Shown here piece by piece: positions 22,578 to 63,831 of a stretch of 64,000 nucleotides of DNA (positions are counted from its first letter, which is position 1; each line of letters opens with the position of its first letter). Source of the stretch: an uncultured virus (IMG/VR IMGVR_UViG_3300034375_007546) (Duplodnaviria; Heunggongvirae; Uroviricota; Caudoviricetes); IMG/VR virus record IMGVR_UViG_3300034375_007546. The stretch is one strand, 5' to 3'. Both the position numbers and the translations under genes were made by a program. The notes under the pieces are model-generated. The model ran no database searches. It worked only from the letters and a program-made list of their open reading frames with translations, and was not told the origin of the DNA.

Positions 22578-22587
22578 ACTCTACCAA

Positions 22588-23175: not shown

Positions 23176-23187
23176 AAAGGAAATAGT

Positions 23188-23397: not shown

Positions 23398-23402
23398 GCG
23401 TT

Positions 23403-37045: not shown

Positions 37046-37046
37046 G

Positions 37047-37757: not shown

Positions 37758-38262
37758 TCAGGAGTCAATGAACAAGTTGACAAAGAGCATCATCGATATC
37801 AATGCCGACGATGCTCATTTAAAGAAGTTATATGCTGTCCATGGTTTGGACTACACGCCGCAGCCGATTAAGATTTACATTGATTCTTATGGTGGCGCAG
37901 TATACCAATGCTTTGGTTTGCTTGGAGTTATGGAGAAGTCTGAGACGCCAATCCATACGATTGTAACTGGTGCTGCTATGTCTTGCGGATTTATGATTTT
38001 GATCTCGGGACACAAGCGTTTCGGATATAAACTATCCACGCCGCTTTACCATCAGGTTTCTACTGGTTTCTACGGCAAGGTTCAGGATATGGAAGAGAGA
38101 CTACAGGAAACAAAGCGTCTTCAAAAGGTGATTGAGGATATTACTTTGGAGAGAACCAACATCTCAAAAAAGAAGTTGGCCGATGTTCTCAAAAACAAGG
38201 TTGATTGGTATATGTCTGCCGAAGAGGCACTAAAGTTGGGCGTTATTGACGCAATCTTATAA
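37699..38262 (+). CDS. clpP: ClpP-family protease 1
   Basis: IYIDSYGG, GAAMS (Ser), LYHQ (His), DWYMSAEEALKLGVID. Confidence 0.88.
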   Translation: MAKVLPLPQDRFLYLPEQVDQESMNKLTKSIIDINADDAHLKKLYAVHGLDYTPQPIKIYIDSYGGAVYQCFGLLGVMEKSETPIHTIVTGAAMSCGFMILISGHKRFGYKLSTPLYHQVSTGFYGKVQDMEERLQETKRLQKVIEDITLERTNISKKKLADVLKNKVDWYMSAEEALKLGVIDAIL

Positions 38263-38272
38263 AGGATTATAA

Positions 38273-38980
38273 ATGAACCACGAAGACGAAAACAAAACGA
38301 TTTATTTATATGGCGACGGTATTGGAAAGGTCCAACTTATTGAGAGTTATGGATCAGATAAATCCGTCGTGAATAGTGCCCGAGTGTCCTTCGGGAAGCA
38401 TAAAGAAGAACTTGACGAACGAGATAAAAAGTTAATCAACTATCTTATCAAGCATCGCCATACTTCAACTCTGGAACATTGCGGCATTACATTTAAGTTT
38501 GTCGTCCCGCTTTATGTTCGTTCGCAACATCATCGTCATCGTACTTGGTCTTATAACGAGATTTCAAGAAGATACACAGATGTGGATATTCAGTTCTATG
38601 AGCCGAAGGTTTTCAGAACACAACATAAAACAAACCGACAAGCATCAAACGCCGAAGATCTAATCAATCCTGTTCTGTCTTGTGGAAGCGATTGCGATGA
38701 GATGGTTATGCGACACCATCAAATGTCTCTTGATCTTTACGATAGAATGATGTCGGCAGGCGTTTGCCGAGAGCAAGCCCGTGGAGTTCTACCACAGAAC
38801 CTTTACTCTACCTATTGGGGCACGACGAACTTAAATAATCTGCTAAAGTTCATTGACCTTCGCACGCACGAAGGAGCACAATGGGAGATTGTAAAAGTCG
38901 CTGAAGCCTGTCTAGAAATCGCCACCGACCTGTTTCCAGAAACGGTAGGTGCTTATCGTAAGATTAAAGGCGAAGAATGA
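38273..38980 (+). CDS. thyX: Flavin-dependent thymidylate synthase
   Basis: HTSTLEH, RHRTWSYNEISRRY, EQARGVLP, LR...AQWEI. Confidence 0.96.
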   Translation: MNHEDENKTIYLYGDGIGKVQLIESYGSDKSVVNSARVSFGKHKEELDERDKKLINYLIKHRHTSTLEHCGITFKFVVPLYVRSQHHRHRTWSYNEISRRYTDVDIQFYEPKVFRTQHKTNRQASNAEDLINPVLSCGSDCDEMVMRHHQMSLDLYDRMMSAGVCREQARGVLPQNLYSTYWGTTNLNNLLKFIDLRTHEGAQWEIVKVAEACLEIATDLFPETVGAYRKIKGEE

Positions 38981-48780: not shown

Positions 48781-50595
48781 ATGTATTTACGTCAAACTAA
48801 TAATTGGAAAGAGTTTCTGCTTCAAGAGGCAATCGAACAAACCGGTTTGCCTCTTGAAGTAGTTGCTATGATCCGAGATCTCAGCAACGAGTTAGGTTCG
48901 GTTCCAGAAAAGGTTTTAACTTCACTTGGAACTATGGCTCGTAGTTACTCGTATGCTACGCCTCTTATCATTGATTGGATGAACCCGTCAGATGATGACA
49001 ATAAATTTAGAAGTAACCCCGCAATATCAGATTTACAAGCTATTCTTTATGATCGCAGGAAGCCTCGTTCTGAAAGGACCGCCGAGGATGAAGCTCTTCG
49101 TAAGGAAATGGATAGAGACTTTATTCATCCTTTGGTAGCAGGAACCACAGGAGACAACCCGGATAATCCCCGGCTTGTAAACATTTTAGATACAAATCGT
49201 TATAGAAAGAGATACGTCAAGAAACTTAAAAAAGCGGGACTAACAGAAAAAGCAGAAGCATCAGATAAGGTTTTTGTTGATGCTATGGTTAAGTGGGCAG
49301 AAAAATTTGTAATGCCTTATATGGAGCCCATTATAAAGGCTGTTGTAGAGGATCCGGATGATTATCAATCAATATTAAAGTTTGTGAGTCGCATTTCCGA
49401 TAAAAGGAAGCTGATCGCCGCAGCTGCAAAGGCTAAAAGACTATTAGAAAGAGAACCAGAAGATCCGCAGAACGTAGTTCATAAGTTTAATAATGGTTAT
49501 TACTGGTATGATATCAAGTCTGATGCTTGTACTCTTGAAGGACAAAAGATGGGTCACTGTGGTAAAGGAATAGCTGGCGGCAACCTTTACTCTTTGCGTT
49601 CTCCATCGGGAACTAAAAAAGATCCCGATCCTCACGTTACAATAGAAATGACTGCGCCCGGTGTCATCTATCAAATCAAAGGCAAAGAAAACGACGCGCC
49701 TGTAAAGAAATACTGGCCTTATATTTCTTGGTTCATAAAGAATATTAAATCAACAGAGGGTAAGCCAGTTACAGGTTATATGGAAGAGAAAACCGGTCCC
49801 GGCTTTAGTGAGATGTATGATTACTTACAAGAACAAAATCCGGATGTGCTTAAGGAGGATTTTGCTGAGTTCGCAGATAGATACAAGGAAGGCCTCGCAG
49901 ATTATGCGGAAGCCTTATTCGCCAACTTTGATATACTTGCAGGCTCACCGTCGCCCTACGATACAATAAGGTCTCAAAATATAACCTTTAAGCATACCCC
50001 ACGCGCAGTTGACTCCGACACCCCCAGTCTAACATTTTTTATCAGTTACAAACTCAAATACAAAGCGAAGTTGCCGGATTACTTTAATTTACGCAACATC
50101 TCTTCTCGCGCTCGCGCAAAAAGGGGTGAGGAGTTAGACAAAATTCAAGATCATATTAAAAATGAAATATTCCCAAAGTATTTTTCTAGCGGAACATCCG
50201 ACACACTTCCAGAGCCCAGTCGTCCCAAGGCTGAACAAGGCGAAGGCTCTCTAAGTAATATTTACGATTTACGTTATGATTTGAAATGGAAATGGGACGT
50301 GCGCGCACCAGACAAAAAGAAACTTAGAGAAGCCGTAAAAGAAGTAAAGAATGTTCTTAAATATTTGGTTGGTGTTGACGCTGATGTGATGACTGTCGGT
50401 GGACTTGACCCCGAACAACTGCGAACCCTTCAGAAAGCATTTGATAAAGAAGGCGGCCAAGGTAAGATGGATATTACGGGCTTTGAAATGGAAGTAGAGA
50501 AGTATTTCGATAGTCTAGGGTTTCAGCCTTCTGATGACGAAGAGATGCTACAAGAAAGTATCACATTTGATCGTTGGGCAAAAATAATAAAATAA
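48781..50595 (+). CDS. Late protein with PcfJ-like domain
   Basis: EGQKMGHCG, LYSLRS, PHVTIE, QIKGKEN; late motif 6 nt upstream. Confidence 0.65.
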   Translation: MYLRQTNNWKEFLLQEAIEQTGLPLEVVAMIRDLSNELGSVPEKVLTSLGTMARSYSYATPLIIDWMNPSDDDNKFRSNPAISDLQAILYDRRKPRSERTAEDEALRKEMDRDFIHPLVAGTTGDNPDNPRLVNILDTNRYRKRYVKKLKKAGLTEKAEASDKVFVDAMVKWAEKFVMPYMEPIIKAVVEDPDDYQSILKFVSRISDKRKLIAAAAKAKRLLEREPEDPQNVVHKFNNGYYWYDIKSDACTLEGQKMGHCGKGIAGGNLYSLRSPSGTKKDPDPHVTIEMTAPGVIYQIKGKENDAPVKKYWPYISWFIKNIKSTEGKPVTGYMEEKTGPGFSEMYDYLQEQNPDVLKEDFAEFADRYKEGLADYAEALFANFDILAGSPSPYDTIRSQNITFKHTPRAVDSDTPSLTFFISYKLKYKAKLPDYFNLRNISSRARAKRGEELDKIQDHIKNEIFPKYFSSGTSDTLPEPSRPKAEQGEGSLSNIYDLRYDLKWKWDVRAPDKKKLREAVKEVKNVLKYLVGVDADVMTVGGLDPEQLRTLQKAFDKEGGQGKMDITGFEMEVEKYFDSLGFQPSDDEEMLQESITFDRWAKIIK

Positions 50596-50755
50596 TTTTT
50601 CTCTAATGGTAACAAGCCTCATAGTTACTAATGGACATGAACGGGTTAGAAAGGGCTCAGGTTGTATGCAAAATTTAGCATCCCGTAAGGAGTTTGCAGG
50701 TAAATATACGGTGAGGTGATAGTGATAAAGTAACCTATTGCACGGAGGGTTTTTC

Positions 50756-51592
50756 GTGTCTGGGTGGATTAAAAACTTTATAATAGTAGCTTCTTTACTT
50801 TTGGTAAGTTGTACCGGACCGGTCTTACCAGAATCTAACTCTAATCTAAGTCCGGATTTCATTCAAACACAACGCACAGTTGAAGTTCGAGACTCTCTCG
50901 GAGCAGTCTTGGAAGTCATTGATGCGATTAATTTTACATTAACAGAGAAAAGAACCAGACAGGCTGCTGTCAAGGTGCGTTCACTTTTATATGGCGGTCA
51001 CGGCTCTGGCACTTACATGGTGGCCTATGGCCGTCGAGTTGTCGCAACGGCTGCTCACGTCGTCCGGAACGAGAGCACTATGCTTATAGAAGGTCGCGAC
51101 GGTGAGGTGGTCATAGGCAAGGTTGTTTTTGTGGATCACAAAGTTGATCTTGCTTTTTTGGTTGTCCCTGAGATTGAAACCAGAACAGCCATCCGTTACA
51201 GACCAGAATCAAAGTATGACGAGAGACTAGTTGGCAAAAGTCTAACTTATACTGGCTTTCCTTCACACCACGATCTTCTTACAATTCATGGTTACATCGC
51301 GGCCTTAGAAAGAAATATGATTGTTTCCAATATGTTCGGGTGGTTCGGGTCGTCTGGTTCCGGCGTCTTTGACGATCAAGGAAGATATGTTGGCTGTGTA
51401 TCTGGACTAGATGTTGGCCGATTTGGTCAGGGAGTTAGAATTCCGCTAGAGGACATTGTTTGGGTCGCGCCAATCAGCCAAATTGATCAGGAGCTTTTAA
51501 AAGCAAGAATCACAACATCTGATGTGCCAGAGAAGGAAATGAAGTCTATTCCTGGCGCAGCTGCTCCGAGAAGAGGCGGGTTGAGGGACTAA
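50756..51592 (+). CDS. Trypsin-like serine protease, predicted lipoprotein
   Basis: LLLVSC lipobox; triad TAAHVV, DLAFL, GSSGSGV. Confidence 0.85.
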   Translation: MSGWIKNFIIVASLLLVSCTGPVLPESNSNLSPDFIQTQRTVEVRDSLGAVLEVIDAINFTLTEKRTRQAAVKVRSLLYGGHGSGTYMVAYGRRVVATAAHVVRNESTMLIEGRDGEVVIGKVVFVDHKVDLAFLVVPEIETRTAIRYRPESKYDERLVGKSLTYTGFPSHHDLLTIHGYIAALERNMIVSNMFGWFGSSGSGVFDDQGRYVGCVSGLDVGRFGQGVRIPLEDIVWVAPISQIDQELLKARITTSDVPEKEMKSIPGAAAPRRGGLRD

Positions 51593-51671
51593 GAAAATGC
51601 GTAATCTCCTTCTCTTGCAGAGTTGATTTATAATCGCAAGTCTGGCATAATTACTAGACAGGAGTTAATCA

Positions 51672-51938
51672 ATGTTATCTTTAATACAGAGAATACTCCG
51701 AGCGGCAACATCATTCGATACCGTGCTTAGTCGCTTGGATAGAATTGAAAGCGCGATAAATAAAATCGAGACAAAGATCAAAAAGTTTGATAAGATTGCT
51801 GATGAGAACGATGCTCTTTGGCAAATGCTCGATGAGCAAAGAGAAATGGAACAGATCTTTGTGAAGAATACAGAAGATTACAATAAAGAGATCGCAGAGA
51901 TTCTTTTGAGGAACGCGAAAGTCCAGGGCGATGCCTGA
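51672..51938 (+). CDS. Hypothetical coiled-coil protein
   Basis: AGGAG RBS; heptad pattern. Confidence 0.65.
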   Translation: MLSLIQRILRAATSFDTVLSRLDRIESAINKIETKIKKFDKIADENDALWQMLDEQREMEQIFVKNTEDYNKEIAEILLRNAKVQGDA

Positions 51939-52668
51939 TAGAGTATATCTTTTTGACGTTGACGGAACGTTAACCGAACCGAGAGAGAAGATTAAAGAAC
52001 AGATAGAGGATGTATTCATGAGTTGGATTGCATCTAAGAACAAGAGTGTGTATCTTGTTACGGGTTCCGATATCAGCAAAACCAAAGAGCAGCTTGGCGA
52101 GGATCTGATGGATGCTTGTCTTGGTGTTTTTACTTGCTCCGGTAATGTATTCAGGCAGGAAGACCAGATTATTTACAGTAACGTTTTCGATCCTGGCGAT
52201 GAGTTTATTGCGGATCTGGAACTTTATTTGGAAAACTCTCAATGGCGTTCTAAGAAAGGCAACCATATCGAAAAGCGTCCGGGAATGTTAAACTTCTCTA
52301 CTGTTGGAAGAAACGCAAATCAAAATATGCGCAAGGCTTACGCACGTTGGGATAAGACTTCTCTTGAACGAGAGGATATTGTAGCTTATATAAACGACCT
52401 GTACCCCGACCTAGAGGTTTCCATTGGCGGGTCTATCTCTGTAGACATTTATCCTAAAGGAAAGAACAAAGGTCAGGTGGTTGAGAAGTTGAGAGAGCTT
52501 CACGGTGATGATGTTGAAATGATTTTTGTTGGAGACAAGAATATCCCCGGCGGAAATGATTGGTCTCTCGCACAACGTTTGGAAACTATTGAGGGTTCTC
52601 AATGGTATCAAGTTTTATGTCCAGAAGAAACACGCTGCCTTATTGAGTATGGGGAACTATTTATATAG
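51931..52668 (+). CDS. Eukaryotic-type phosphomannomutase (HAD IIB)
   Basis: LFDVDGTLT, VTGSD, IEKRPGMLNFS..GR, GGSISVDIYPKG, FVGD..PGGND. Confidence 0.85.
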   Translation: MPDRVYLFDVDGTLTEPREKIKEQIEDVFMSWIASKNKSVYLVTGSDISKTKEQLGEDLMDACLGVFTCSGNVFRQEDQIIYSNVFDPGDEFIADLELYLENSQWRSKKGNHIEKRPGMLNFSTVGRNANQNMRKAYARWDKTSLEREDIVAYINDLYPDLEVSIGGSISVDIYPKGKNKGQVVEKLRELHGDDVEMIFVGDKNIPGGNDWSLAQRLETIEGSQWYQVLCPEETRCLIEYGELFI

Positions 52669-54687
52669 ATGAAACGCCAACTACAAATATTTAAAGAGTT
52701 TATTGAGGAAGCAAAAGACCCAGCATACTTCCAAGATACATTCAACTTCACAGTCCTGATCTCAATGGACAAGAACCGTGGTGGTTCCCGCGATGAAACT
52801 AAAAATGATATTCGCGCACTACCAGAGGTTCTAACTGTTACTCTTATCGAGAAGGAAAAGGGTGGTGTTCAGAAAGACTTAGGTAACACTTATCTTTCTA
52901 CTTTGAAGATCCACGTTCGCAGACCTCGCGATACATCCAAAGAACTAATGATGAAGCGTGTTGTAAAGCAGATCGCGAGACTGAAAGGCGTTTCGGTTCT
53001 TCGTTACAAGGAGCGTAAGCCAAAGCAAAGAAGAAAAGCTTTCTACGGACCAGGGTCATACACCAAGAGAGTTCAGAATGTTAATGAGGGTGAATACTAT
53101 CAGTCCTCAAAGCATATGGCTGACCTCAAAAAAGACTTCAAGGATCTTACTTCCAAGGGACCACAAAAGAAAGGCGGCTACAAAAACGTAAGTGACTCGC
53201 CTGATTTCAAGTCCGCACCCCCCGGAGCCCCTGGTGGTTTAGAAGAGGCACTACTTGACGAAGCTATGAAGACTGCCGCCGATCTACCCGAAGGGGTTGT
53301 AGTAGCAGTTGATCTTCAACGGATGCCTATGAAATATAAGGTCTATTATGCGATGAGGGACAACCCTAATGCTCCTTTGGTTGCAGACGATTTGGATCGC
53401 ATGGAGGCAGGCATTGATATATATGGTGTGCTGGAGGCACACAGATCGTCAGGCGACCCGTACAAGGGCACATACAAGGTTGCTACTGTAAAAGCCAGAG
53501 ATGGCTTTGGTCCATTGCTTTATGACGTAGCGTTGGAAATAGCGTCTGATAAAGCCAGGGGTTTGAAAGCAGACGATAACAGCGTATCCGATGACGCTTC
53601 TGCTATTTGGAGATATTATCACGATAAGCGTGACGACGTTGAAAAGCGCGAAGCAGATCCTTACATTGACGACTGGTATGATTCTTATCGTGCTGGCGTA
53701 ACAGATTTGAATAATCTTGCTCGGCATATGGCTGAGGCTGGATTTATTCCAGTAGCCGATCTTGAGTCAGAAAAGTCAATGAGAGACTTTGTTAAGAACA
53801 AGCGTCACCTTACAAAGATTTACAAGAAGGATTCAAAAGACACTACCACATCTTTGAAGGACGCCGGTAAGATTGTTCAGGTTACAAAACAAAAGCCAAA
53901 ACCAAAATACACGATTAAAGACCTTAGTCGCTTTGACCGTTTGCGCGAGGACATTCTAATTTCTGTTGGCAAGGAAGACGATCTTGCTACGTTTGAAATG
54001 CAGCCAGAATTCCAGCAGAAGATTTGGGACGGTGATGAGAGAATCCGCCCGGGCGTTAAGGGTGCTTTGATGGATATAGTTGATGAGTTTGTGGAGCGTT
54101 TAGATCTAGACGCGGAGATCAAAGATATAATTGTTACAGGATCTTTGGCCAACTATAACTGGTCAAAGTTCTCTGATATTGATTTGCATATCCTTATTGA
54201 CTTCAAAGAAGTTAACGACAATGAAGAGTTGGTCAAACGTTTCTTTGATGCTGTTCGTTCCAACTGGAATAAGACCCACGACATAAAAGTCAAGGGACAC
54301 GAAGTTGAGCTTTACGTTCAGGATGAAAACGAGCCACACGTTTCAACAGGAGTTTACTCTTTAATGAACGACAAGTGGCTCGTGAAACCAAACAAAGTCA
54401 AGCCTTTCATTGATAAGAAAACTGCCAAGAAAAAAGCAGCCGATATCGAAAGAGAGGTTGACAAGGTGGCTTCTGTCCTGTATGATGGTAATCATGAAGC
54501 TGCACTAGACAAGGCAGCCTACTTGAAAGAGAAGATCAAGACAATGCGCCAAGCAGGCTTAGAAAAGGCAGGAGTATTCTCCCCAGAGAACCTTGCCTTT
54601 AAGATGCTCCGAAGGTCGGAAGCACTTAGTAAATTACATGACGTATACATTAAAGCATACGATCAGACTTTAAGTCTTGACCAATGA
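52669..54687 (+). CDS. Multidomain late protein: GNAT-like plus pol-beta nucleotidyltransferase domains
   Basis: ARDGFGPLLYDVALE...SVSDDASAIWRYY; IVTGSLANYNWSKFSDIDLHI...VELYVQD. Confidence 0.7.
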   Translation: MKRQLQIFKEFIEEAKDPAYFQDTFNFTVLISMDKNRGGSRDETKNDIRALPEVLTVTLIEKEKGGVQKDLGNTYLSTLKIHVRRPRDTSKELMMKRVVKQIARLKGVSVLRYKERKPKQRRKAFYGPGSYTKRVQNVNEGEYYQSSKHMADLKKDFKDLTSKGPQKKGGYKNVSDSPDFKSAPPGAPGGLEEALLDEAMKTAADLPEGVVVAVDLQRMPMKYKVYYAMRDNPNAPLVADDLDRMEAGIDIYGVLEAHRSSGDPYKGTYKVATVKARDGFGPLLYDVALEIASDKARGLKADDNSVSDDASAIWRYYHDKRDDVEKREADPYIDDWYDSYRAGVTDLNNLARHMAEAGFIPVADLESEKSMRDFVKNKRHLTKIYKKDSKDTTTSLKDAGKIVQVTKQKPKPKYTIKDLSRFDRLREDILISVGKEDDLATFEMQPEFQQKIWDGDERIRPGVKGALMDIVDEFVERLDLDAEIKDIIVTGSLANYNWSKFSDIDLHILIDFKEVNDNEELVKRFFDAVRSNWNKTHDIKVKGHEVELYVQDENEPHVSTGVYSLMNDKWLVKPNKVKPFIDKKTAKKKAADIEREVDKVASVLYDGNHEAALDKAAYLKEKIKTMRQAGLEKAGVFSPENLAFKMLRRSEALSKLHDVYIKAYDQTLSLDQ

Positions 54688-55094
54688 TTAAAATAAGGAT
54701 TGGTAAGAAAATGAAAGGATCGGCTGTTGCAATACTAGACGACGATAGCAATATGTTATTGTTGCTGCGTTCAGAGAAGTCTCGTTGGATGCCTAAAAAG
54801 TGGGGACTCCCAGGTGGCAAGGTTGAGAGCGGTGAAGAGCCGGAAGAAGCAGCCATCCGAGAAACAAAAGAAGAAACAAGTCTGAATATTCGGAACCTAA
54901 CTTACTTAAAAGATTTTAGTAATAAATGGGTTGACTTGTTTTACACAGCCGATTATGATGGTAATATTCAAATTGATTTTGAACACGACGATTATGAATG
55001 GGTGTCTCGCGCTGACGTAGAGCAATACGACACAACGCCACAAATCGTAGACATATTTGATTGGATTTTGAAAAATGAGCGAACAAACGACTAA
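54684..55094 (+). CDS. Nudix hydrolase
   Basis: Nudix box GGKVESGEEPEEAAIRETKEETSL. Confidence 0.93.
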   Translation: MIKIRIGKKMKGSAVAILDDDSNMLLLLRSEKSRWMPKKWGLPGGKVESGEEPEEAAIRETKEETSLNIRNLTYLKDFSNKWVDLFYTADYDGNIQIDFEHDDYEWVSRADVEQYDTTPQIVDIFDWILKNERTND

Positions 55095-55467
55095 CGAAGA
55101 CGAAAGCCAAGTTGAAGAGCAATCTCCTGCTGAGGAGCTAATCCCCAAAAAGCCATCTCGTTTGTGCCCGCGCGGCATTCAAACTTTTACAGTTGCGCGC
55201 CAAGCAGACGAAACAGGCGTCTCTGGTGAGGGTGTTGTTATTGAAGGCGTTGTGTTGGCGACAGGGCAATGTATCGCTCATTGGCTGTATCCGCGACCAA
55301 AGGGTTCCATTGCTATTTTTGATTCAATGAATGATTTTATCACAGTTCATATCAAGCCACACCCAGGCAATCGCACCATTATTACATATGATGATGGCGA
55401 ACAAGAGCGATACGGACTATTTACAGAAGAGGAAAAGTCAAATGAAAATAACGAAGTCCAGACTTAA
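55075..55467 (+). CDS. Hypothetical phage protein
   Basis: DETGVSGEGVVIEGV motif; 130 aa. Confidence 0.7.
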   Translation: MSEQTTNEDESQVEEQSPAEELIPKKPSRLCPRGIQTFTVARQADETGVSGEGVVIEGVVLATGQCIAHWLYPRPKGSIAIFDSMNDFITVHIKPHPGNRTIITYDDGEQERYGLFTEEEKSNENNEVQT

Positions 55468-56113
55468 GCAAATTATTACAGAAGAGTTGCAGAACATTCT
55501 TGCCGAGGAGGATGGTCAAGACGACCCATTCGCTCCGGGCAACACACGGTATTTTGAGCCGGGTGAGAGAGAGGCAGCGCGGAAAGCGCGCGGCGGGGCT
55601 AAGACTGCAAAGGTGGGCATTCGTTCCAAGGCAGCTGCCGACCGTCGTGTAAGAGGTGAGATTCGCCAACGCGCTGAGAAGCTTCTAGACGCGTTATATC
55701 CGGATGCCTCTAATCCAGAACTAGTCTTCATCATTCGGCAAGAAGATGATGAGGGCACTCTTGTAGATAGTTTGTTTGGCTTTATGTTCCCCCGTGAGAC
55801 CAAAATGGACAAGCCAAATCCTTACCTGATGGACAGAGTAGAGGAGTGGATTAAGACGCGCTCTGGAGATGAGGAGATTGCTTTGGAAGTTGGAGGGCGA
55901 TCAAAGCCTGAGAACCTTGACTCGCTTCTTACTTATATCGAAACCAAGGGAATGGAACTAGGCAAGCAGATTTTTGACAAAGCCAAAGCTGATGCGGACA
56001 GTCGCCCAGCTAGAAACGTTCCCGTAGGTAGGGCTGCAACCCCTGGAACCCCAGAACGCGCCGCTCTCGACAGATTAATGAGTGCGGAAGTTCCGCCCAA
56101 GCGAAGACGATAA
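55442..56113 (+). CDS. Late protein with MKITKSRLKQIITEEL leader
   Basis: Late motif at 55416, GAGG RBS, shared leader. Confidence 0.75.
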   Translation: MKITKSRLKQIITEELQNILAEEDGQDDPFAPGNTRYFEPGEREAARKARGGAKTAKVGIRSKAAADRRVRGEIRQRAEKLLDALYPDASNPELVFIIRQEDDEGTLVDSLFGFMFPRETKMDKPNPYLMDRVEEWIKTRSGDEEIALEVGGRSKPENLDSLLTYIETKGMELGKQIFDKAKADADSRPARNVPVGRAATPGTPERAALDRLMSAEVPPKRRR

Positions 56114-56168
56114 GATAATCCTTGACGTGGCGCTCTCAGCCTGCTATAGTGTATGTAGAGGTTGAGAG

Positions 56169-56420
56169 ATGGTTTTTCACGGAGACTACGAAGAAGCACT
56201 AAATGATTGGGGATCAAAAAACCCCACTTGTCCCGGCGATATAAGAGTTGGCGATCTTGTGAGATCAAAAACTAAATGGTTAGGTGGTGTGGGTATTGTC
56301 ACAGACGTTTATAAGGTGACACACCTAAGTGGTGACTCTTGGTGGTGTTGCAAAGTTTACATTGACGGCAAAGAACGCGCATTGCCAATCGGAGATTTTG
56401 AATTGGTAGAAAGGAGATAA
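56169..56420 (+). CDS. Hypothetical KOW/SH3-like protein
   Basis: IRVGDLVR..GVGIVTDV; promoter at 56122. Confidence 0.65.
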   Translation: MVFHGDYEEALNDWGSKNPTCPGDIRVGDLVRSKTKWLGGVGIVTDVYKVTHLSGDSWWCCKVYIDGKERALPIGDFELVERR

Positions 56421-56421
56421 G

Positions 56422-56766
56422 TTGAGAGATTTAATTTACGGCTTCCTACTTTTCTTTGTAGGGCAAGTGCTGATATGGTTTCAAACCAATGCTCAGTTTC
56501 TAAATGAATGGGCAAAGGAGCATCCCTTTTTAATGTCTTGTATATTCAGCATTCCAATATCTTATATGTTTATCAAAGCAACCGGGCTCGTTGTAAGCCA
56601 CTTTGATGGTTTGCTTTGGCCTGGACGTTTTATTGGCTTCGCATCCGGCGTTGTTAGTTTTGCGTTCCTATCTTATTTCTTTATGGGCGAGGGTATTACA
56701 GCCAAAACAGGCTTGAGTTTGCTTCTCGCAGTTATTATTGTTTGTATTCAGGTGTTTTGGAAATGA
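56422..56766 (+). CDS. Four-TM small membrane protein (SMR/DMT-like)
   Basis: Four hydrophobic segments in 114 aa. Confidence 0.65.
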   Translation: MRDLIYGFLLFFVGQVLIWFQTNAQFLNEWAKEHPFLMSCIFSIPISYMFIKATGLVVSHFDGLLWPGRFIGFASGVVSFAFLSYFFMGEGITAKTGLSLLLAVIIVCIQVFWK

Positions 56767-56987
56767 AGAAGATTATTATTATTTGTGCCGTGCTAATGAC
56801 TGGTTGCGCACATACACGTATGCCTCTTTTGAACGGTCGCTGCCCAAGCGACTTCCCTATCAAGGGAAATGCTGAATCAAGGTTATATCATACTCCGGGT
56901 GGTGAGTATTATCATTTAACTGTACCGGAAGTTTGCTTTGCATCAGAGGATGTTGCTCGCCAGCGAGGCTTTGGTAAATCCAGATAA
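56763..56987 (+). CDS. Small lipoprotein with IKGN..YH.PG..Y domain
   Basis: LMTGC lipobox; CP..FPIKGN..LYHTPGGEYY..EVCFASE..A..GF. Confidence 0.7.
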   Translation: MKKIIIICAVLMTGCAHTRMPLLNGRCPSDFPIKGNAESRLYHTPGGEYYHLTVPEVCFASEDVARQRGFGKSR

Positions 56988-57049
56988 AGCAATAATAAAC
57001 CTTGACTTCCCGAGCCTCCCATGCTACTATATGAGTGTAGGAGGCTACT

Positions 57050-57520
57050 ATGGATAGTCATAAAGAAAACGAACTTTACGAAAGGTTCCCGCATTTATAT
57101 AGAGAGAGATTGGCTCCGTTAGAAAGCTCAAAGATGGGCTGGGGTTTTCAATGTAATGATGGTTGGTATGATATTATTCACAAAATGTCTAAGAGGATTG
57201 CTGCGATATCGTCAGACGACGAGTTCGCACCAGCCATTACGGAAGTTTCTCGGAACGAAGACGGGACGCTTTATGTTGAGGCACGCAATCTTACACCGGC
57301 AGTCTCAAATCTCATTGAAGCTGCCAAAGAACAATCAAAACTAACTTGTGAGAGTTGTGGATACGCGCCAGCGTTTAAGCGATCCAAAGACGGTCCTATG
57401 AAGGATCGTGTGGCTTGTGGACGCTGTGCAAGACAAGCAGAAGGGAGTAAGAGGCATAAGGCACCAAAACGCAAGAGAAAGCCGCGTAGGGCGCCTGATG
57501 TAATGGTTGTAAAGCGTTGA
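57050..57520 (+). CDS. Hypothetical Zn-ribbon protein
   Basis: GFQCNDGW, TCESCG, ACGRC; promoter at 57002. Confidence 0.7.
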   Translation: MDSHKENELYERFPHLYRERLAPLESSKMGWGFQCNDGWYDIIHKMSKRIAAISSDDEFAPAITEVSRNEDGTLYVEARNLTPAVSNLIEAAKEQSKLTCESCGYAPAFKRSKDGPMKDRVACGRCARQAEGSKRHKAPKRKRKPRRAPDVMVVKR

Positions 57521-57744
57521 TGAAAGAATTTAAGGTAGGCGACTTGGTTCGCGATAAGTTAAATCAAAATAATAATAGTTACGGGCTTGGTGTTGTAGTT
57601 GATGATAATCTTGCCCCTTCAAAGGGGGAGTTATGGGATCGTCTCGACGGAGCCCTCGGCAAAAAGTATTCTGTTTATTTTACGAAGTTTGGAAAGACAA
57701 TAACATTTCACGGAGATTATCTTGAACGAGTATCAGAGGACTGA
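57520..57744 (+). CDS. Hypothetical KOW/SH3-like protein
   Basis: FKVGDLVR..GLGVVV. Confidence 0.65.
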   Translation: MKEFKVGDLVRDKLNQNNNSYGLGVVVDDNLAPSKGELWDRLDGALGKKYSVYFTKFGKTITFHGDYLERVSED

Positions 57745-57944
57745 GAAGTATACAAATCGAAGGATCAAGCAACTTAAGGGCGAGTTGTCTAGCGTTGAAC
57801 CGTTGGCGTTGGATGCTAAGATGGAAAGATATACAAGTCGGCGCCTTTTTGAGCTTCGGTGCGAGGCAAAAGAAAGAGAAAACACTTTTTTGGTTGACAA
57901 CGTGCTGTTCAGAGGGTATACTATGGCAACGATGGAGGTTTACC

Positions 57945-58331
57945 GTGGTGATTGAGGATTGGTCAGAGTTTGAGGATTGGTCAGAGTATAAGACTCGCAG
58001 CCTACTAAGCAATTTTACTTGGACCGATGAAGCTACTAGTGATTGGGTTGATATTTGGGATGCTCTTTGGCAACTAGGGTTCCAATGGGAATGGAAGGTT
58101 GGTGATGGTTATGTTCGCCGCTATGATAAGTCGACTTTTAACTATTACTTTGTTCACGATCTTTACCTTACGCCTCCGCAGGAAGGTGCGATACCACTCC
58201 CGCAGATTCACGTTCTAAACGAGATCAAGGATGTTTTGCTAGATCATCCCGGCGATGATTCTCGTGTGGGCTATGCTATCAAAGCGATCAATGATTGGTT
58301 TAGCCATGTTATATTCCGAGAGAGGACATAA
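57945..58331 (+). CDS. Hypothetical protein
   Basis: GTG follows GGAGG and the promoter at 57894; contains an 18-bp tandem duplication at 57952-57987. Confidence 0.6.
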   Translation: MVIEDWSEFEDWSEYKTRSLLSNFTWTDEATSDWVDIWDALWQLGFQWEWKVGDGYVRRYDKSTFNYYFVHDLYLTPPQEGAIPLPQIHVLNEIKDVLLDHPGDDSRVGYAIKAINDWFSHVIFRERT

Positions 58332-58332
58332 A

Positions 58333-58599
58333 ATGAGAAACTTCCTAAACTTTGTTCGCGATACCTTAATGTTCATTGGCTTCTTTATTGCTACTGGGGT
58401 GTATGTTACAACCGCAGCAGGTATGGCTACCATTGTTATCAATGACATTCAGTTGGACACTTACGTTACTTTGAGGACAGGCTTTGCGGCAGTGCTATGG
58501 ATGATCCTTACCATCTGGGTACCGATTATTCTATTCTGCGGGTCAGGAAGAATCGACAGAAATCAAATAATCCTTGACAGCGATGGCGAGGCGTGGTAG
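58333..58599 (+). CDS. Two-TM membrane protein
   Basis: GAGGA RBS; two hydrophobic helices. Confidence 0.65.
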   Translation: MRNFLNFVRDTLMFIGFFIATGVYVTTAAGMATIVINDIQLDTYVTLRTGFAAVLWMILTIWVPIILFCGSGRIDRNQIILDSDGEAW

Positions 58600-58646
58600 A
58601 CTGTAGTCACGATGAGAGAAGGCGCCCAGTCTTTTGACTGGGTGTC
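58574..58646 (+). promoter_or_regulatory. Repeated sigma70 promoter, copy 1, plus downstream stem-loop
   Basis: TTGACA-N17-TAGACT; 30 bp identical to 62630-62659; hairpin GGCGCCCAGTC-TTTT-GACTGGGTGTC. Confidence 0.85.
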
Positions 58647-58685
58647 AACCCCCGGATTCCTTAATTTGATCACGAAAGGACATTG

Positions 58686-61187
58686 ATGCTGGTTGTAAAC
58701 CATATTTATGGATATTCAACGGATTCAGACCGAGAAAAGGGCTGGGCTAAGATCGGACAGACTACCAACCAAACTGTTGACGATCGCATTAGACAGCAAG
58801 ATACGAGTTCAAACTCCGAGCCTCTGAAAAAGTTGTGTGAGATTCGCAACGTTAGATTCACCGATCATCAAATTCGTAATGAAATAGAACGTTTGGGTCT
58901 TGGCTATCCTGTTCGTAAAGAGTGGATGTTTATTAAAGCTGGGGTCGACAAGGTTGCCGAGACTATTCAAAAAGCCATTAATTCTCTGGCACTAGGTATC
59001 GTTCGCTCTAATTCCTTTGGATTGCGTCCGTGGCAGCAAGAGTGTCACGATAAGGCTGTGGGTGCTCTTAATAGTAGTCATGACAAGTTTCTTATTGGCG
59101 CTGTCATGCGTTTCGGAAAGACGTTTACGTGCCTTAAAATTGCTGAATCTTTGGGTATCAAGTCTGCCCTAGTCATTACTGGCAAGCCTGAAGTCCGCGA
59201 TTCTTGGAAGAATGAGCTTCAGAGCCATGTTGATTTTGTTGGTTGGGATTTTGTTGACTTGCGTGATGGCAATCTCTCAGTCAGCAATATTGATTTCAAT
59301 AAGAAGAACTTGTTCTTTGTATCATTCCAGTACCTTTTGACAAAGGCTGAGGGTGTTGATAAGACTTGGATCTATGACTTGCCAATTGATTTGATTCTGA
59401 CTGATGAGGAACATTATGGGTCAAAGACGGAAAAGTCGGCAAACATTCTGAATAATTTCGGATCTGTCCGGACAATTGCTATGTCAGGTACGCCGATTGA
59501 AAGTCGTAGGTCGGGGCGTTATGAGGATGATAATTCATTTTACTGGTCGTACCTAGACGCAGTACAAAGCAATTCAACTTTTCCAAATTTGCGAATCCAT
59601 GCTATGGATGTAGCAAAGTCAGTTGTTCGTGAAGCAAAGACTGCCGGGTTTGTTGGTGATGAAGCCTTTAATATTGCAAAGGTATTCGCAACCGAAAATG
59701 GCAAGTTTCTGTACGAGAGCGATGTTCGCTCATTGTTTGAAAAGGTATTTGATCTGCGTGCTATGTCGCGCGATCGCCGTAGAGACTCACCGGAGCGAAT
59801 TACGGGACTACAGAGTGACAATTTCAGTCATATTCTAATGCGTGTTCCCTATTCTGTAGATGCCGCTAGTGCCACTGTTGATTTGCTAAGAGAGCTTTTG
59901 CCCGATAGAGAGATTGTTCTAGCTGCTGGAAGCGCTAACGGCGCCGTCACAAATATTAACGAAGTTAAGCGACGTATCGCACAAAATAACAAGACGATAA
60001 CCGTTACGTGCGGTCGGTTTGAGACAGGCGTTACGGTTCCAGAATGGGGCGCTGTTTATCTTTTTGATGGAGGTCGAAGCCCCGAATCATTTTGGCAGTT
60101 TATTTTTAGGGCATCAACTCCACTTAAAACGGATTCCTGGGAAAAGAAGGATTTTTACGTTTTTGATTTTGATCCTCATCGCTCTCTTGAGATGATGTAT
60201 ACAGCAGCATCGGTTTCTCGTAAGCCGGGGCAAGAAATGGAGAAGGTTGTCACAGAATGGCTTGACGTTGCACCTATTTTGCAGCATGATGGTAGTCAGT
60301 TTACAGAGATTGATGCCAAGAGTGTGTTGGGGGCATACGACAATATGACTGCCGGCAAAATGCTGGAGAGGTTTGCCTCTGAGTATGGTATTTGGAATGT
60401 TTATGATCAGTCGGCTATGGATATTCTGTCCGACATTAAGGCAAGTAGTAAGCGCAAGATTGTGCAAGCAATCGCGGACAATCCTGATCTTGAAAAGGGC
60501 AAGGTAAAGAAGATTGTTGAAAAGGTGAAGAGTCTCTCAGTGAGTGAGAAGGCTGAAATTAAAAACCTCAAGGAAAAGGTCAAGAGCGTACTCCGCAGGA
60601 TCCCAATGGCTCTGCCGAAATTGGGGGCTGTTGATTTGAATAGCCTTCTGAGCACTCAAGATAAGGATTACTTTAAGGCGACCGTTGGAATCTCGGTAGA
60701 GAACTTTAAGGAACTGATTGAGAATAGAGTTATCAATAGCGACTGGTTAAACGATTGTATTATCAGCACTGTTAACTATCTTGCGCGGGTTGAAAATAAC
60801 CCGGATGCTTTGTGGAAGATCCTTGAACTCTATGCTAGTATGGGTAGCGAAGTGTCTCCTGGCACTCCTAAAAACATCGCAAACGAAATGCTTGATTCGT
60901 TGGATGAAAGCCTTTGGAAGGATCCAACTAAGACATTCTGTAACCCTAATGTTTCTGATGGAACTTTTTATTTTCTTATGATCGAAAAGCTGATGAATGG
61001 ATTGACAGAGGCAATCCCAAATGAGGCAGAAAGAATGCGCCATATTCTTACAAATCAGATATATGGCTACGATCATAAGGTCGGCCCTCTGGGCTTTGTT
61101 AAGTCGATCGCTGAAAGATACCTTAACACTAAGGCATTGGGTATCGAACTTAACTTGGAGATGAGAAACATTTTGGAGGAAAATTAA
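58686..61187 (+). CDS. Restriction-type protein: T5orf172/GIY-YIG-like nuclease + SF2 helicase + degenerate MTase N-half
   Basis: KIGQT..RI, DH.IR, KEW; MRFGKT, DEEH, MSGTP, TGVTVPEW, QFIFRA.TP; C-terminal TPKNIANEMLD..WKDPTKTFCNP. Confidence 0.82.
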   Translation: MLVVNHIYGYSTDSDREKGWAKIGQTTNQTVDDRIRQQDTSSNSEPLKKLCEIRNVRFTDHQIRNEIERLGLGYPVRKEWMFIKAGVDKVAETIQKAINSLALGIVRSNSFGLRPWQQECHDKAVGALNSSHDKFLIGAVMRFGKTFTCLKIAESLGIKSALVITGKPEVRDSWKNELQSHVDFVGWDFVDLRDGNLSVSNIDFNKKNLFFVSFQYLLTKAEGVDKTWIYDLPIDLILTDEEHYGSKTEKSANILNNFGSVRTIAMSGTPIESRRSGRYEDDNSFYWSYLDAVQSNSTFPNLRIHAMDVAKSVVREAKTAGFVGDEAFNIAKVFATENGKFLYESDVRSLFEKVFDLRAMSRDRRRDSPERITGLQSDNFSHILMRVPYSVDAASATVDLLRELLPDREIVLAAGSANGAVTNINEVKRRIAQNNKTITVTCGRFETGVTVPEWGAVYLFDGGRSPESFWQFIFRASTPLKTDSWEKKDFYVFDFDPHRSLEMMYTAASVSRKPGQEMEKVVTEWLDVAPILQHDGSQFTEIDAKSVLGAYDNMTAGKMLERFASEYGIWNVYDQSAMDILSDIKASSKRKIVQAIADNPDLEKGKVKKIVEKVKSLSVSEKAEIKNLKEKVKSVLRRIPMALPKLGAVDLNSLLSTQDKDYFKATVGISVENFKELIENRVINSDWLNDCIISTVNYLARVENNPDALWKILELYASMGSEVSPGTPKNIANEMLDSLDESLWKDPTKTFCNPNVSDGTFYFLMIEKLMNGLTEAIPNEAERMRHILTNQIYGYDHKVGPLGFVKSIAERYLNTKALGIELNLEMRNILEEN

Positions 61188-62141
61188 ATGAAGTTTGATG
61201 TAGTAATTGGGAACCCGCCTTACCAAAAGAGTGACGGAGGTCATGGTGCCTCAGCAAAGGCGATTTATAATGACTTTGTGGAAAAGGCGAAGGAATGGGA
61301 TCCTGAATACCTTTCCTTTGTGATTCCGGCGCGCTGGACAGTCGGCGGAAAGGGAATGGCAAGCTTCCGCAAGAGCATGCTGAATGATACGAGTATTGAG
61401 CTTCTTAAGATTTTTCCTAATTCTAAGGATTGCTTCCCCGATAATGATATCAAGGGTGGTATCTGTTACTTTGTTAGAAATACCAACCACAATGGAAACT
61501 GCAAAGTTGTTATAAAGAATGGATCCAGCGAAACCTCAGATATTAGAACTCTCAACGAGGTCGGTGACGATTTGTTTATTGTCAATAAGACATCAGCTGA
61601 TATCGTCGCAAAAGTCCAAAATGTTGAATCGGAGTTTATGGATACGATTGTTAGCGCTTCTAAGCCTTTTGGGTTGCGTACCTTCTACAAGGGTAAAGAT
61701 GCAGGAGAAGTATTACTCTACCAAAACAAGGGACAAGCTTATTGTGAAAGTAGTGATCTACTTAAGAATCGTGATTGGGTGGATGATTATAAGGTTTTAA
61801 TTCCATATGCAGCCGATGGTCGTGGTGGCATGGGCTTGCAAGTTCTGGGTCATCCAATTGTTGCGAAGCCTGGAAGTGCTTGTACCGAGACCTATCTAAT
61901 TGTTAATCGTTACGACAATCTTGTAGAGGCTGAAAATATGGCATCGTTTCTAAAAACAAAGTTTGCGCGCTTTATGGTATCGACCCTAAAGAAGACGCAA
62001 CACGGTACGCGACGAGTCTTTAGGTTCGTTCCTCATCTCGATATGAACAAAAAATGGGTTGACAGCGAGCTTTATGAGAGGTACGATCTGAGTCAGAATG
62101 AGATCGACTTCATCGAGAAGAAGATCAAAGCGATGGCATGA
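61188..62141 (+). CDS. Eco57I-like adenine methyltransferase catalytic half + target recognition domain
   Basis: MKFDVVIGNPPY, FVIPARW, IKGGICYF, CTETY, LYERYDLSQNEIDFIE. Confidence 0.88.
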   Translation: MKFDVVIGNPPYQKSDGGHGASAKAIYNDFVEKAKEWDPEYLSFVIPARWTVGGKGMASFRKSMLNDTSIELLKIFPNSKDCFPDNDIKGGICYFVRNTNHNGNCKVVIKNGSSETSDIRTLNEVGDDLFIVNKTSADIVAKVQNVESEFMDTIVSASKPFGLRTFYKGKDAGEVLLYQNKGQAYCESSDLLKNRDWVDDYKVLIPYAADGRGGMGLQVLGHPIVAKPGSACTETYLIVNRYDNLVEAENMASFLKTKFARFMVSTLKKTQHGTRRVFRFVPHLDMNKKWVDSELYERYDLSQNEIDFIEKKIKAMA

Positions 62142-62629
62142 CAGAGAAACTTGTTAAAACAAAAAAGCGTGTTGCAGATGTTGGAGAGGTGTTCACACCT
62201 AGATGGCTTGTTGAAGAGGTTTTAGAGGCTCTTCCTAAAAGTGTATTTGAAGACTCTGAGAAAACCTTTATTGACCCCGCCTGTGGTGATGGAAATTTCT
62301 TGGCTGTAGTACTTGAACAAAAGATGGAACATGGCGTTGATGCATTACAGGCTATCTCTACCATATACGGTGTTGATATCATGCCTGATAATGTTTTAGA
62401 GTGCAGGCAGCGTCTGTTTAAGACGGTTGTTTCTAGAGTGAATAACAAAGTAGTGCCTTCTAATTTTTACAGTCAAATGGTGGAAATACTAAAGAGGAAC
62501 ATCCAACTCGGGGATACACTTCAATTTGATATAGAGGATATTCTGTCCGAGAATCCATCATCAGAGCTTCAAAGTTTCAGGCTAGAAAGAATGAGTGAAA
62601 GTAAAAAAGCAGTTGACAAGACAGACTGA
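62138..62629 (+). CDS. Methyltransferase SAM-binding half (motifs X and I)
   Basis: GEVFTP, FIDPACGDGNFL, IYGVDI, NIQLGDTL; no NPPY motif. Confidence 0.85.
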   Translation: MTEKLVKTKKRVADVGEVFTPRWLVEEVLEALPKSVFEDSEKTFIDPACGDGNFLAVVLEQKMEHGVDALQAISTIYGVDIMPDNVLECRQRLFKTVVSRVNNKVVPSNFYSQMVEILKRNIQLGDTLQFDIEDILSENPSSELQSFRLERMSESKKAVDKTD

Positions 62630-62659
62630 GCGTGGTAGACTGTAGTCACGATGAGAGAA
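62612..62659 (+). promoter_or_regulatory. Repeated sigma70 promoter, copy 2
   Basis: GTTGACAAGACAGACTGAGCGTGGTAGACTGTAGTCACGATGAGAGAA. Confidence 0.85.
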
Positions 62660-62694
62660 TGGACCTCTAGCTCAACAGGTAGAGCATCGGACTT

Positions 62695-63383
62695 TAAATA
62701 GGAGTGCTTTAGTAGAAATATTAAAAGTAGAATTTGGCTATATGCTGGAACACCCTTAGAGCCTTTAATACCAATTACCTTTGGTGACAATTTGAAGGAT
62801 TGGGCAATCAGCAGGAAACTAACAGGTCACTAATCCGACGCTTGACTATTTATCTGTAGGAGGTAAACTACAGTGTTACATAGTAAAGCAAAAGGGACGA
62901 TTGGTGAGGTGAAAGTGGCAGCCGATTTACTTTCAAGAGGATTTCACGTTTTTACAGAAATTGGTGATCTATCGAAGATTGACTTGATAGCCGAGCGGGA
63001 TAGAAAACTATACAGATTTCAAGTAAAAGCCTACCATTCTAAGGATGGTGTTGTTGTTCTCTCAAGTAAAAAGAGTGGCCCAAACTACTCTTTTCACTAC
63101 GAAAGTGATCAAGTTGACATTTTTGCCGTGTATGTCTTAGACAAAGATATAATTTTCTATGTCTCCTCTAAAGAGGTTTGTGAATATTCAAGCAGTATGA
63201 ATATTCGCCTTGAGCCTCCAAAGAATGGACAAAAGAAAAATATAAACTTAGTAGAAAACTGCACACTAGAAAGGATCCTCAGAGACTACACGCCAAACGC
63301 CCAAACAGATAATGCTGTGGGTGATGATATAGTCCAGACCAGCAAACCTTTTTGGGCGGCTTAGGAAACTAAGTGCTGGTAAG
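62695..63383 (+). mobile_element. Group I intron in the tRNA anticodon
   Basis: P TGCTGGAA at 62743, Q AATCAGCAGG at 62806, R TCAGAGACTACA at 63279, S GATATAGTCC at 63326, P3 TTTGGC/GCCAAA; the 5' exon ends in U and the intron ends in G. Confidence 0.92.
62873..63364 (+). CDS. Intron-encoded PD-(D/E)XK homing endonuclease (I-Ssp6803I-like)
   Basis: KGTIGE, IDLIAE, RFQVK, Y...QVDIFAVY; AGGAGG RBS and GTG start. Confidence 0.85.
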   Translation: MLHSKAKGTIGEVKVAADLLSRGFHVFTEIGDLSKIDLIAERDRKLYRFQVKAYHSKDGVVVLSSKKSGPNYSFHYESDQVDIFAVYVLDKDIIFYVSSKEVCEYSSSMNIRLEPPKNGQKKNINLVENCTLERILRDYTPNAQTDNAVGDDIVQTSKPFWAA

Positions 63384-63445
63384 TTAATCCGCAGGTTCTG
63401 GGTTCGAGTCCCAGGGGGTCCACCAATTTTCACCAAGAGGTAAAA

Positions 63446-63708: not shown

Positions 63709-63750
63709 GTTGACAAGACAGACAGGGCGTGGTAGACTGTAGTCACGATG
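63709..63750 (+). promoter_or_regulatory. Repeated sigma70 promoter, copy 3
   Basis: 40 of 42 bases identical to 62612-62653. Confidence 0.85.
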
Positions 63751-63755: not shown

Positions 63756-63831
63756 TGAGGTGTAGTTCAATTGGCAGAGCCCCGGATTTTGATTCCGGCA
63801 GTTGTAGGTTCGAGTCCTACCACCTCAACCA
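63756..63831 (+). tRNA. trnQ: tRNA-Gln(UUG)
   Basis: TGAGGTG/CACCTCA acceptor stem, CCGGA-TTTTGAT-TCCGG anticodon arm, encoded CCA. Confidence 0.95.

Follow-up and report, generated by a model that had tools for sequence, protein, structure and literature searches.

A tRNA-Lys(UUU) gene split in the anticodon

Near one end of the window (the whole stretch of DNA that was analysed, 64,000 nt, one strand) two tRNA halves flank an insert of 689 nt, with a promoter-like site ahead of them. The features of this locus are as follows.

62613..62641, plus strand: promoter-like site TTGACA-17-TAGACT in which TG precedes the -10 hexamer; the tRNA begins about 20 nt downstream
62661..62694, plus strand: 5' exon of tRNA-Lys(UUU), 34 nt, positions 1-34, ending in C32 U33 U34
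62695..63383, plus strand: predicted group I intron, 689 nt, with G63383 (omega G) as its last base
63384..63425, plus strand: 3' exon of tRNA-Lys(UUU), 42 nt, starting with U35 U36 A37 A38, CCA encoded

The window comes from a large tailed freshwater phage that is uncultured. It also encodes a major head protein, a tail sheath, a DNA polymerase, a helicase, a ribonucleotide reductase and a GroEL-like chaperonin. A PurZ-like gene raises the possibility that 2-aminoadenine is present in the phage DNA. Positions 50000-62600 had no match among the GenBank phages in a megablast search, which found no close relative of this phage.

An earlier note on this DNA had described two tRNA halves at 62661..63425 around a 689-nt insert, and these coordinates proved exact by sequence. 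It had also placed the splice after U34, restoring a 7-nt CUUUUAA loop. When the exons were joined at this point, ARAGORN returned a canonical tRNA-Lys(ttt) of 76 nt with that loop and a single mismatch (U27.C43). The 3' exon shared about 89% identity with tRNA-Lys as annotated in T5-like phages (blastn).

The split gene is easily overlooked. Neither ARAGORN with default settings nor Rfam at the gathering score detected the split tRNA-Lys, and only a tRNA-Gln at 63756-63831 was called. With long introns allowed, ARAGORN found a split tRNA at exactly 62661-63425, but misplaced the junction and reported Leu(taa) with a 679-nt intron. Because standard tRNA finders miss or mislabel such split genes, tRNA-Lys is under-counted in phage genomes.

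The promoter-like site scored 10 of 12 in the consensus scan. It lies within a 42-nt block (62612-62653) that recurs before the tRNA-Gln at 63709-63750, giving two copies in the window versus 0 expected by chance. The sequence suggests that 62613-62641 serves as a promoter.

The insert is predicted to fold as a group I intron

The elements of the predicted ribozyme are listed below, all on the plus strand. The assignments from P2 to P4 rest on covariation, for P3, P4 and P5/P5a/P5b together with the Rfam alignment.

62701..62705: internal guide sequence, whose GAGU forms P1 with exon ACUU
62707..62727: P2 hairpin with GAAA tetraloop
62733-62738: P3, 5' strand
62743-62748: P4, 5' strand (element P)
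62753-62804: P5/P5a/P5b
62808-62813: P4, 3' strand (element Q)
62819..62823: P6, 5' strand CUAAC, pairing with GAAAG at 63269-63273 with two central A.A mismatches among the five pairs
63269-63273: P6, 3' strand
63284-63288: P7, 5' strand (element R)
63292-63297: P3, 3' strand
63298-63323: P8
63330-63334: P7, 3' strand (element S)
63339-63344 with 63374-63379: P9 (5' strand first)
63360-63373: P9a hairpin with GAAA loop; P9 is followed by UAAG up to omega G63383

The exon sequence ACUU pairs with the intron GAGU at 62702-62705. In this P1 the wobble pair U62694(U34).G62702 stands at the splice site with three Watson-Crick pairs behind it, so that P1 of the window has 4 pairs only. G62701, A62700 and U62699 are able to pair with UUA of the 3' exon (P10).

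Relatives were gathered through the ORF and through the peptide encoded by the core. Their splice sites were set by the requirement for U-1 and omega G and by ARAGORN on the joined exons. Covariation was scored in 55 mini-introns (54 distinct) from which the ORF loop had been cut out, and the partner column was slid by 1-2 positions as control. The results for each helix were:

P2: 91% of cells paired, compensatory change in 8 of 8 pairs
P3: 99% of cells paired, compensatory change in 5 of 6 pairs
P4: 100% of cells paired, compensatory change in 1 of 6 pairs
P5: 100% of cells paired, compensatory change in 2 of 3 pairs
P5a: 98% of cells paired, compensatory change in 7 of 7 pairs
P5b: 87% of cells paired
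P7: 100% of cells paired, compensatory change in 2 of 5 pairs
P8: 94% of cells paired, compensatory change in 7 of 9 pairs
P9a: 100% of cells paired, compensatory change in 5 of 5 pairs

In the slid-partner controls only 1-64% of cells were paired for P2, P3, P4, P5, P5a, P7, P8 and P9a (1-50% for P3, P4, P7 and P8). P6 was 63% paired in the family alignment, in which it is poorly aligned; in the relative L023 it is fully paired (CUAUC/GAUAG). Of 125 columns conserved to 90% or more among the related introns, the window matched 121, and its intron and exons were 100% identical in a second contig (L021). The earlier note had read the P/Q/R/S elements, the P3 and P7 pairings, the U.G in P1 and the terminal G from this one sequence. 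All of them are present, and P3, P4, P7 and P8 are 94-100% paired across the 54 distinct introns.

A search with Infernal and the Rfam model, which the note had proposed, gave a divided answer. Both halves of the core matched RF00028 (63112-63357, 32.3 bits, E 2.8e-6; 62685-62995, 19.8 bits, E 0.016), but each stayed below the gathering score of 50, which is an operational threshold. These low scores are due to the ORF, which splits the core in two halves with about 460 nt. Among the ORF-less relatives tested, 10 of 12 reached the gathering score (50.2-73.5 bits).

These results indicate that 62695-63383 is, judged by its sequence, a group I intron with a predicted P3/P7 pseudoknot. It is of the small tRNA type and IC3-like by its predicted architecture: the anticodon loop is the insertion site, P2 is single, and both P2 and P9a end in a GAAA loop.

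The intron encodes a predicted PD-(D/E)XK nuclease

An ORF is inserted in loop L6 of the ribozyme, with the following features.

62854..62873, plus strand: predicted hairpin CUGUAG/CUACAG, with GGAGG in or beside its loop and the G of GTG as last paired base
62859-62863: Shine-Dalgarno sequence GGAGG, 9 nt upstream of the GTG
62873..63364, plus strand: predicted homing-endonuclease ORF, 163 aa, GTG start, in loop L6, PF11645
63269..63364, plus strand: dual-use stretch, codons 133-163 and the stop, also holding P6'-P7-P3'-P8-P7'-P9 and the first strand of P9a

The ORF product matched Pfam PF11645 (PDDEXK_5) over residues 3-128 with 85.1 bits (cut-off 26.1), and NCBIfam gave zero matches to it. 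PF11645 was present in all 74 homologues at E <=1e-5, two of which are named 'group I intron-associated PD-(D/E)XK endonuclease' by NCBI. Two database homologues, 95% and 87% identical to the ORF, were both intact. An AlphaFold2 model of the protein (pLDDT 83.8) had I-Ssp6803I (2OST_A) as its best PDB match (E 8.4e-10, TM 0.69/0.76), followed by Hjc resolvases. D37, Q50 and K52 were invariant in 35 sequences and aligned to D...QVK of 2OST, whose catalytic D...(Q/E)xK residues we take from the motif. The product is therefore predicted, from sequence and model, to be a PD-(D/E)XK nuclease of the I-Ssp6803I family. A complex prediction with two copies of residues 1-142 scored 0.30 against a mark of 0.42 and is silent on oligomerisation either way.

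As the earlier note had claimed, the ORF is inserted between Q and R and extends through the core at its 3' end. The spacing from Q to R is 425-481 nt in ORF-bearing introns, versus a P6 hairpin of 23-38 nt in the ORF-less relatives. The ORF stop (63362-63364) falls in the 5' strand of P9a, so that 63269-63364 codes for protein and forms ribozyme core at once. A peptide, LRDYT...GDDIVQT, is conserved across the protein family because the frame from 63269 on also encodes the ribozyme core. Residues 143-163 were predicted to be disordered by AlphaFold2, and free-standing relatives of the nuclease stop short of this tail. The tail thus mostly looks like a read-through of the ribozyme that lies outside the enzyme fold.

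The start position of the ORF is shared with L023, which uses ATG. The start-codon hairpin of the window had a folding energy of -10.5 kcal/mol with z -1.1, which is not significant for the window alone. Ten sequences were folded, those of the window and of nine relatives; such a hairpin was predicted in 8, and z was <=-2.5 in 6 of these. Covering the ribosome-binding site and the start codon, it probably dampens translation. This fits a remark, in the excerpt of PMC3984707 consulted, that ORFs invading the core are tightly controlled. An internal promoter-like site at 62842-62869 (9 of 12) was dropped; its predicted start lies past the GTG, and such matches occur at chance level.

Intron-minus alleles of the same tRNA gene

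The earlier note had proposed a search of phage genomes for alleles with and without the intron, and both were found. A 27-nt word from the 5' exon (62668-62694) occurred in 8 IMG/VR loci. In 4 of them (L100, L102, L103, L104) it runs directly into the 3'-exon sequence of the window and forms an intact tRNA-Lys(UUU). Three others (L101, L105, L107) have a small intron without an ORF at this position, and the remaining locus is an ORF-bearing relative.

The second source was run X13, whose type was guessed ('DNA?') and which is possibly the source sample. One of its contigs joins 62694 to 63384 and skips exactly 689 nt, with the ends TA..AG (depth 22.6). Another contig of this run has the intron (depth 42.4). 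Since 3 of 103 flanking bases are changed in the contig that lacks it, the latter stems from a related phage and not from that of the window. The stretch of the window with the split gene was found in runs of 18 studies, many of which perhaps stem from one campaign or are the source sample. Freshwater and estuary samples are among those that contain the phage.

Bacterial genomes were covered by a DNA pattern search of genome contigs. The 28-nt anticodon arm occurred uninterrupted and exact in 7 bacterial MAGs (one each of Chloroflexi, Acidimicrobiia and Saccharimonadia, two Actinomycetes and two Phycisphaerales). Bacterial trnK genes with the same anticodon arm therefore exist as target-like sequences, as far as identity of sequence can tell.

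The spliced joint was absent from the contigs of all three RNA runs (X18-X20). These contigs held short parts at low depth, namely 62728-62862 with 1 mismatch and pieces of the ORF at 95-99% identity, which are neutral on transcription and splicing.

A proposed cycle of splicing and homing

We consider it highly probable that a mobile group I intron has inserted here between U34 and U35, in the tRNA-Lys(UUU) gene of a phage. We infer its splicing, the activity and target of its nuclease, and its homing from the sequence and by analogy with known systems. A sigma-70-like promoter of its own would drive transcription of the tRNA gene. The intron would then fold through P1-P10, the P3/P7 pseudoknot and the GAAA loops on P2 and P9a. 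Guanosine would drive a cut after the U34.G pair, and G63383 would then be used to ligate CUU to UUAA, which would give a normal tRNA-Lys(UUU). The ORF in L6 would be read through P6'-P7-P3'-P8-P7'-P9 to its stop in P9a, and the hairpin at the ribosome-binding site and start would probably hold translation low and so let ribosomes spare the core. Acting like I-Ssp6803I, the nuclease would cut the pseudo-palindromic anticodon-arm DNA of intron-less trnK(UUU) in co-infecting relatives, and repair would copy the intron into the cut allele. The phage's own trnK would be protected because the intron splits the proposed cut site.

The same locus could also hold an intron that still splices and a nuclease that is a decaying passenger, with homing lost and vertical descent only. 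We regard this as unlikely. It would agree with the many relatives that are ORF-less (254-311 nt) or keep partial ORF remnants (371-470 nt), with the disorder predicted for residues 143-163, and with the GTG start and start-codon hairpin of the window ORF. On the other hand, the ORF is full length and keeps every family-invariant residue, and the homologues at 95% and 87% identity are not broken either. The intron-plus and intron-minus alleles in run X13 also occur together, as an active homing cycle predicts.

That splicing has been lost and the locus is a dead tRNA gene is less probable still, and we think it very unlikely. The weak P6 and short P1 of the window and the absence of spliced RNA from the contigs of the three RNA runs would suit such a loss. 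Against it, the core retains 121 of its 125 conserved columns and all helices but P6 are intact, the identical sequence stands in L021, and the gene has its own promoter block in common with the neighbouring tRNA-Gln.

It is hardly credible that another tRNA is split here. The candidates are Leu(UAA), for which intron-aware ARAGORN put a 679-nt intron behind position 39, and an 86-nt Gln(CUG), which has a stem-count score of 53 versus 46 for Lys(ttt). Either one would have to borrow tRNA sequence from P9 or P1, and the Leu(taa) junction offers no U.G at the 5' splice site. The uninterrupted form in nature and the guide sequence both agree with the Lys junction, and the 3' exon resembles annotated phage tRNA-Lys. 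The lower stem-count score of Lys(ttt) is due to the U27.C43 mismatch.

Related introns in tRNA-Lys genes and free-standing nucleases

The mobile tRNA-Lys(UUU) intron of the window has many relatives. A 14-row alignment was used for the relative search on metagenome contigs. Over 58 distinct introns the guide sequence tracked the exon in three insertion registers:

Lys(UUU) after U34: exon CUU, guide GAG, 12 rows
Lys(UUU) after U35: exon CUUU or UUUU, guide GAAG or GGAAU, 5 rows
Lys(CUU): exon CUCU, guide GGAG, 41 rows

The match between guide and exon settles the rows that were tied in ARAGORN between Lys and Thr, His or Asn. With the Lys candidate chosen wherever one existed among the split-tRNA solutions, 67 of 71 resolved calls had a Lys solution; the other four were three neighbouring Leu(UAA) introns and L001. 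By their sequences the related introns occupy almost only tRNA-Lys genes, and the element of the window, so judged, belongs to a large and barely described family of tRNA-Lys introns.

The nuclease also occurs alone. We found 17 intron-less relatives of it without any intron core, and in 13 of these loci the nearest tRNA was an intact tRNA-Lys(UUU), 0-78 nt off. Locus L016 has a free-standing nuclease flanked on one side by an ORF-less intron in tRNA-Lys(UUU) and on the other by an intron in tRNA-Leu(UAA). A search for duplicated remnants of tRNA-Lys exons near the genes of free-standing nucleases gave no convincing ones. A quick-search tree of the nucleases (first 132 residues, two rows dropped) placed the window with L023, L004 and the free-standing L003 at SH-aLRT 92. 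The tree mixes free-standing and intron-borne nucleases, which is suggestive.

The family thus offers a natural series on the formation and retargeting of mobile introns, in which alleles with and without the intron stand beside introns with and without an ORF, free-standing nucleases adjoining the target gene, and three registers whose guides match. It is possible, although we would not expect it, that the series reflects a large and so far undescribed radiation of tRNA-Lys homing elements. The nuclease lineage would repeatedly shuttle between the free-standing state and the intron, and the guide would be retargeted among Lys(UUU) 34/35, Lys(UUU) 35/36 and Lys(CUU). Under such a radiation, phage trnK(UUU) may be a preferred site since it is kept against host anticodon nucleases and the gene cannot be lost. 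PrrC and PARIS act on tRNA-Lys. The nuclease may also cut trnK in rival phages or in the host.

Comparison with known systems

The element is built like known bacterial tRNA introns. Williams 2020 (10.1101/2020.01.27.920355) extended the four classical bacterial classes (Leu.3Ug, Arg.5Ug, fMet.2Ug and Ile2.5Ug), all of them IC3, to 21. That survey was confined to bacterial and archaeal assemblies, with phages outside its scope. The words 'Lys', 'phage' and 'virus' are absent from its scientific text, while its class names are given in images outside that text. In its scheme the intron of the window would be named 'Lys.3Ug'. According to the excerpt consulted of Hausner et al. 2014 (PMC3984707), the phage introns then known were all in protein genes, despite the many phage tRNA genes. 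Devoto et al. 2018 described unclassified introns in tRNAs of Lak phages and were aware of no earlier ones in phage tRNAs. Our literature search, which covered Williams 2020 apart from the class names in its images, brought up no account of a group I intron in any phage tRNA or in a bacterial or phage tRNA-Lys.

The earlier note had called a Lys(UUU) site in a phage unusual. This holds for the searchable papers but not for the sequence data, in which 58 distinct related introns sit in tRNA-Lys genes. Phage tRNA genes, tRNA-Lys above all, would then also be common homing sites, whereas reviews place the group I introns of phages in protein genes only.

The closest known arrangement is that of the tRNA-fMet intron of Synechocystis PCC 6803 and its nuclease I-Ssp6803I (2OST), which likewise combines a group I intron in the anticodon loop with a PF11645 PD-(D/E)XK nuclease. 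According to the excerpt of PMC3384342 consulted, I-Ssp6803I is tetrameric and recognises a pseudo-palindromic site of 23 bp. The anticodon arm of tRNA-Lys is also an inverted repeat. The two systems differ in the tRNA (here tRNA-Lys(UUU)), in the insertion point (after loop position 3 versus 2 for fMet, in Williams's numbering) and in the genome (phage versus cyanobacterial), and the protein identity is only about 20%.

The tRNA-Leu(UAA) introns resemble the intron of the window in their insertion between 34 and 35 (CUU/...g/), U-1, omega G and small architecture (10.1101/2020.01.27.920355). Unlike them, the intron of the window has a Lys exon, the guide GAG(U) and an ORF. Three Leu(UAA) introns were found in phage contigs beside the relatives, with RF00028 scores of 58.4 (L010), 61.5 (L016) and 70.2 bits (L101); at 200-237 nt they are too short for an ORF.

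The free-standing relatives call to mind other phage nucleases. Homing endonucleases that stand free beside the gene they target are known, as is 'collaborative homing' together with an ORF-less intron (F-CphI and psbA in cyanophage S-PM2); the Seg enzymes of T4 are further free-standing examples. The intron-less nuclease relatives beside tRNA-Lys(UUU) are arranged like these systems. Unlike them, the nuclease of the window lies inside the intron, and the likeness bears on the history of the family only.

In the P3-P6 region (62740-62818) the intron was 77-80% identical (blastn) to introns in protein genes of phages, for example that of the portal gene of Pseudomonas phage KIL1 and those near the terminase gene of Acinetobacter phage YMC13/03/R2096. 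Such phage protein-gene introns scored 59.9, 78.8 and 96.6 bits with RF00028. Unlike the intron of the window, those of KIL1 and YMC13/03/R2096 split protein genes, and the nuclease annotated nearby is of the HNH type. The portal CDS of KIL1 is annotated as two joined pieces.

Free-standing and tRNA-enclosed relatives of the nuclease

Relatives of the homing nuclease in the window were found at the following loci of other contigs.

L018, around 1878: free-standing nuclease gene with an R-element-like remnant
L016, 1130-2199: free-standing nuclease between two intron-split tRNA genes
L001, 1384-1953: split tRNA enclosing a distant nuclease relative

The free-standing gene of L018 adjoins an intact tRNA-Lys(UUU). 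Its 3' end retains the R-element-like remnant and the protein terminates in ...ILRNYK, which hints at an intron-borne ancestor of this copy. In L016, the nuclease is flanked on one side by a tRNA-Lys(UUU) gene whose intron, 200 nt long, lacks an ORF, and on the other by a tRNA-Leu(UAA) gene split by a group I intron that is likewise 200 nt long (61.5 bits), making this locus a candidate for two-part (collaborative) homing. A tmRNA gene comes next. The L001 relative (29% identity) lies within a split tRNA that appears Pro-like by its resemblance to the adjacent tRNA-Pro. This 495-nt insert is too small to fit a group I core as well, and none of the Q, R and S anchors was found in it.

Clustered and unusual intron-split tRNAs

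In one tRNA cluster of three phage contigs of 143-281 kb (L101, L105 and L107), at least three group I introns fall within 1.5 kb. A further intron-split tRNA was found in L010/L011.

L101/L105/L107 cluster: Leu(UAA) tRNA, intron of 237 nt
L101/L105/L107 cluster: Lys(UUU) tRNA, intron of about 190 nt
L101/L105/L107 cluster: third group I intron, truncated at the locus edge (52.4 bits)
L010/L011, 1310-2054: intron-split tRNA with anticodon UUU

The spliced length of the L010/L011 tRNA is 82 nt, and its 15-nt variable arm is unusual for tRNA-Lys.

A repeated block upstream of the tRNA genes

Window 62612-62653: 42-nt block, copy 1, before tRNA-Lys
Window 63709-63750: 42-nt block, copy 2, before tRNA-Gln

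The block, TTGACA-17-TAGACT plus a conserved leader, is the same upstream of both tRNA genes of the window, and a near-copy precedes tRNA-Lys in the relative L004/L106. The block appears to be a promoter unit dedicated to tRNA genes.

DNA chemistry and other genes of the phage

Window 36041-38980: PurZ-like gene, dUTPase/dCTP-deaminase-like ORF and ThyX, in that order
Window 61188-62629: two overlapping ORFs with DNA-methyltransferase parts
Window 18652-19839: 395-aa ORF with a partial match to family A DNA polymerase
Window 32553-35990: 1145-aa polymerase, present besides the 395-aa ORF

The PurZ-like product is a short adenylosuccinate-synthetase homologue of 334 aa, with matches to Pfam PF00709 (E 3.4e-82) and to the PHROG family that groups PurZ-type enzymes of phages (E 6.5e-67). 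The phage DNA may contain 2-aminoadenine; if so, such DNA would be the substrate of the phage's homing nuclease.

The methyltransferase parts are in swapped order, the C-terminal Eco57I-type profile part preceding the N-terminal N6_Mtase one, and the pair may constitute a permuted or two-subunit methylase. The 395-aa ORF covers the family A DNA polymerase profile only partly. G+C is raised at window 20000-24000 (0.495 versus about 0.43).
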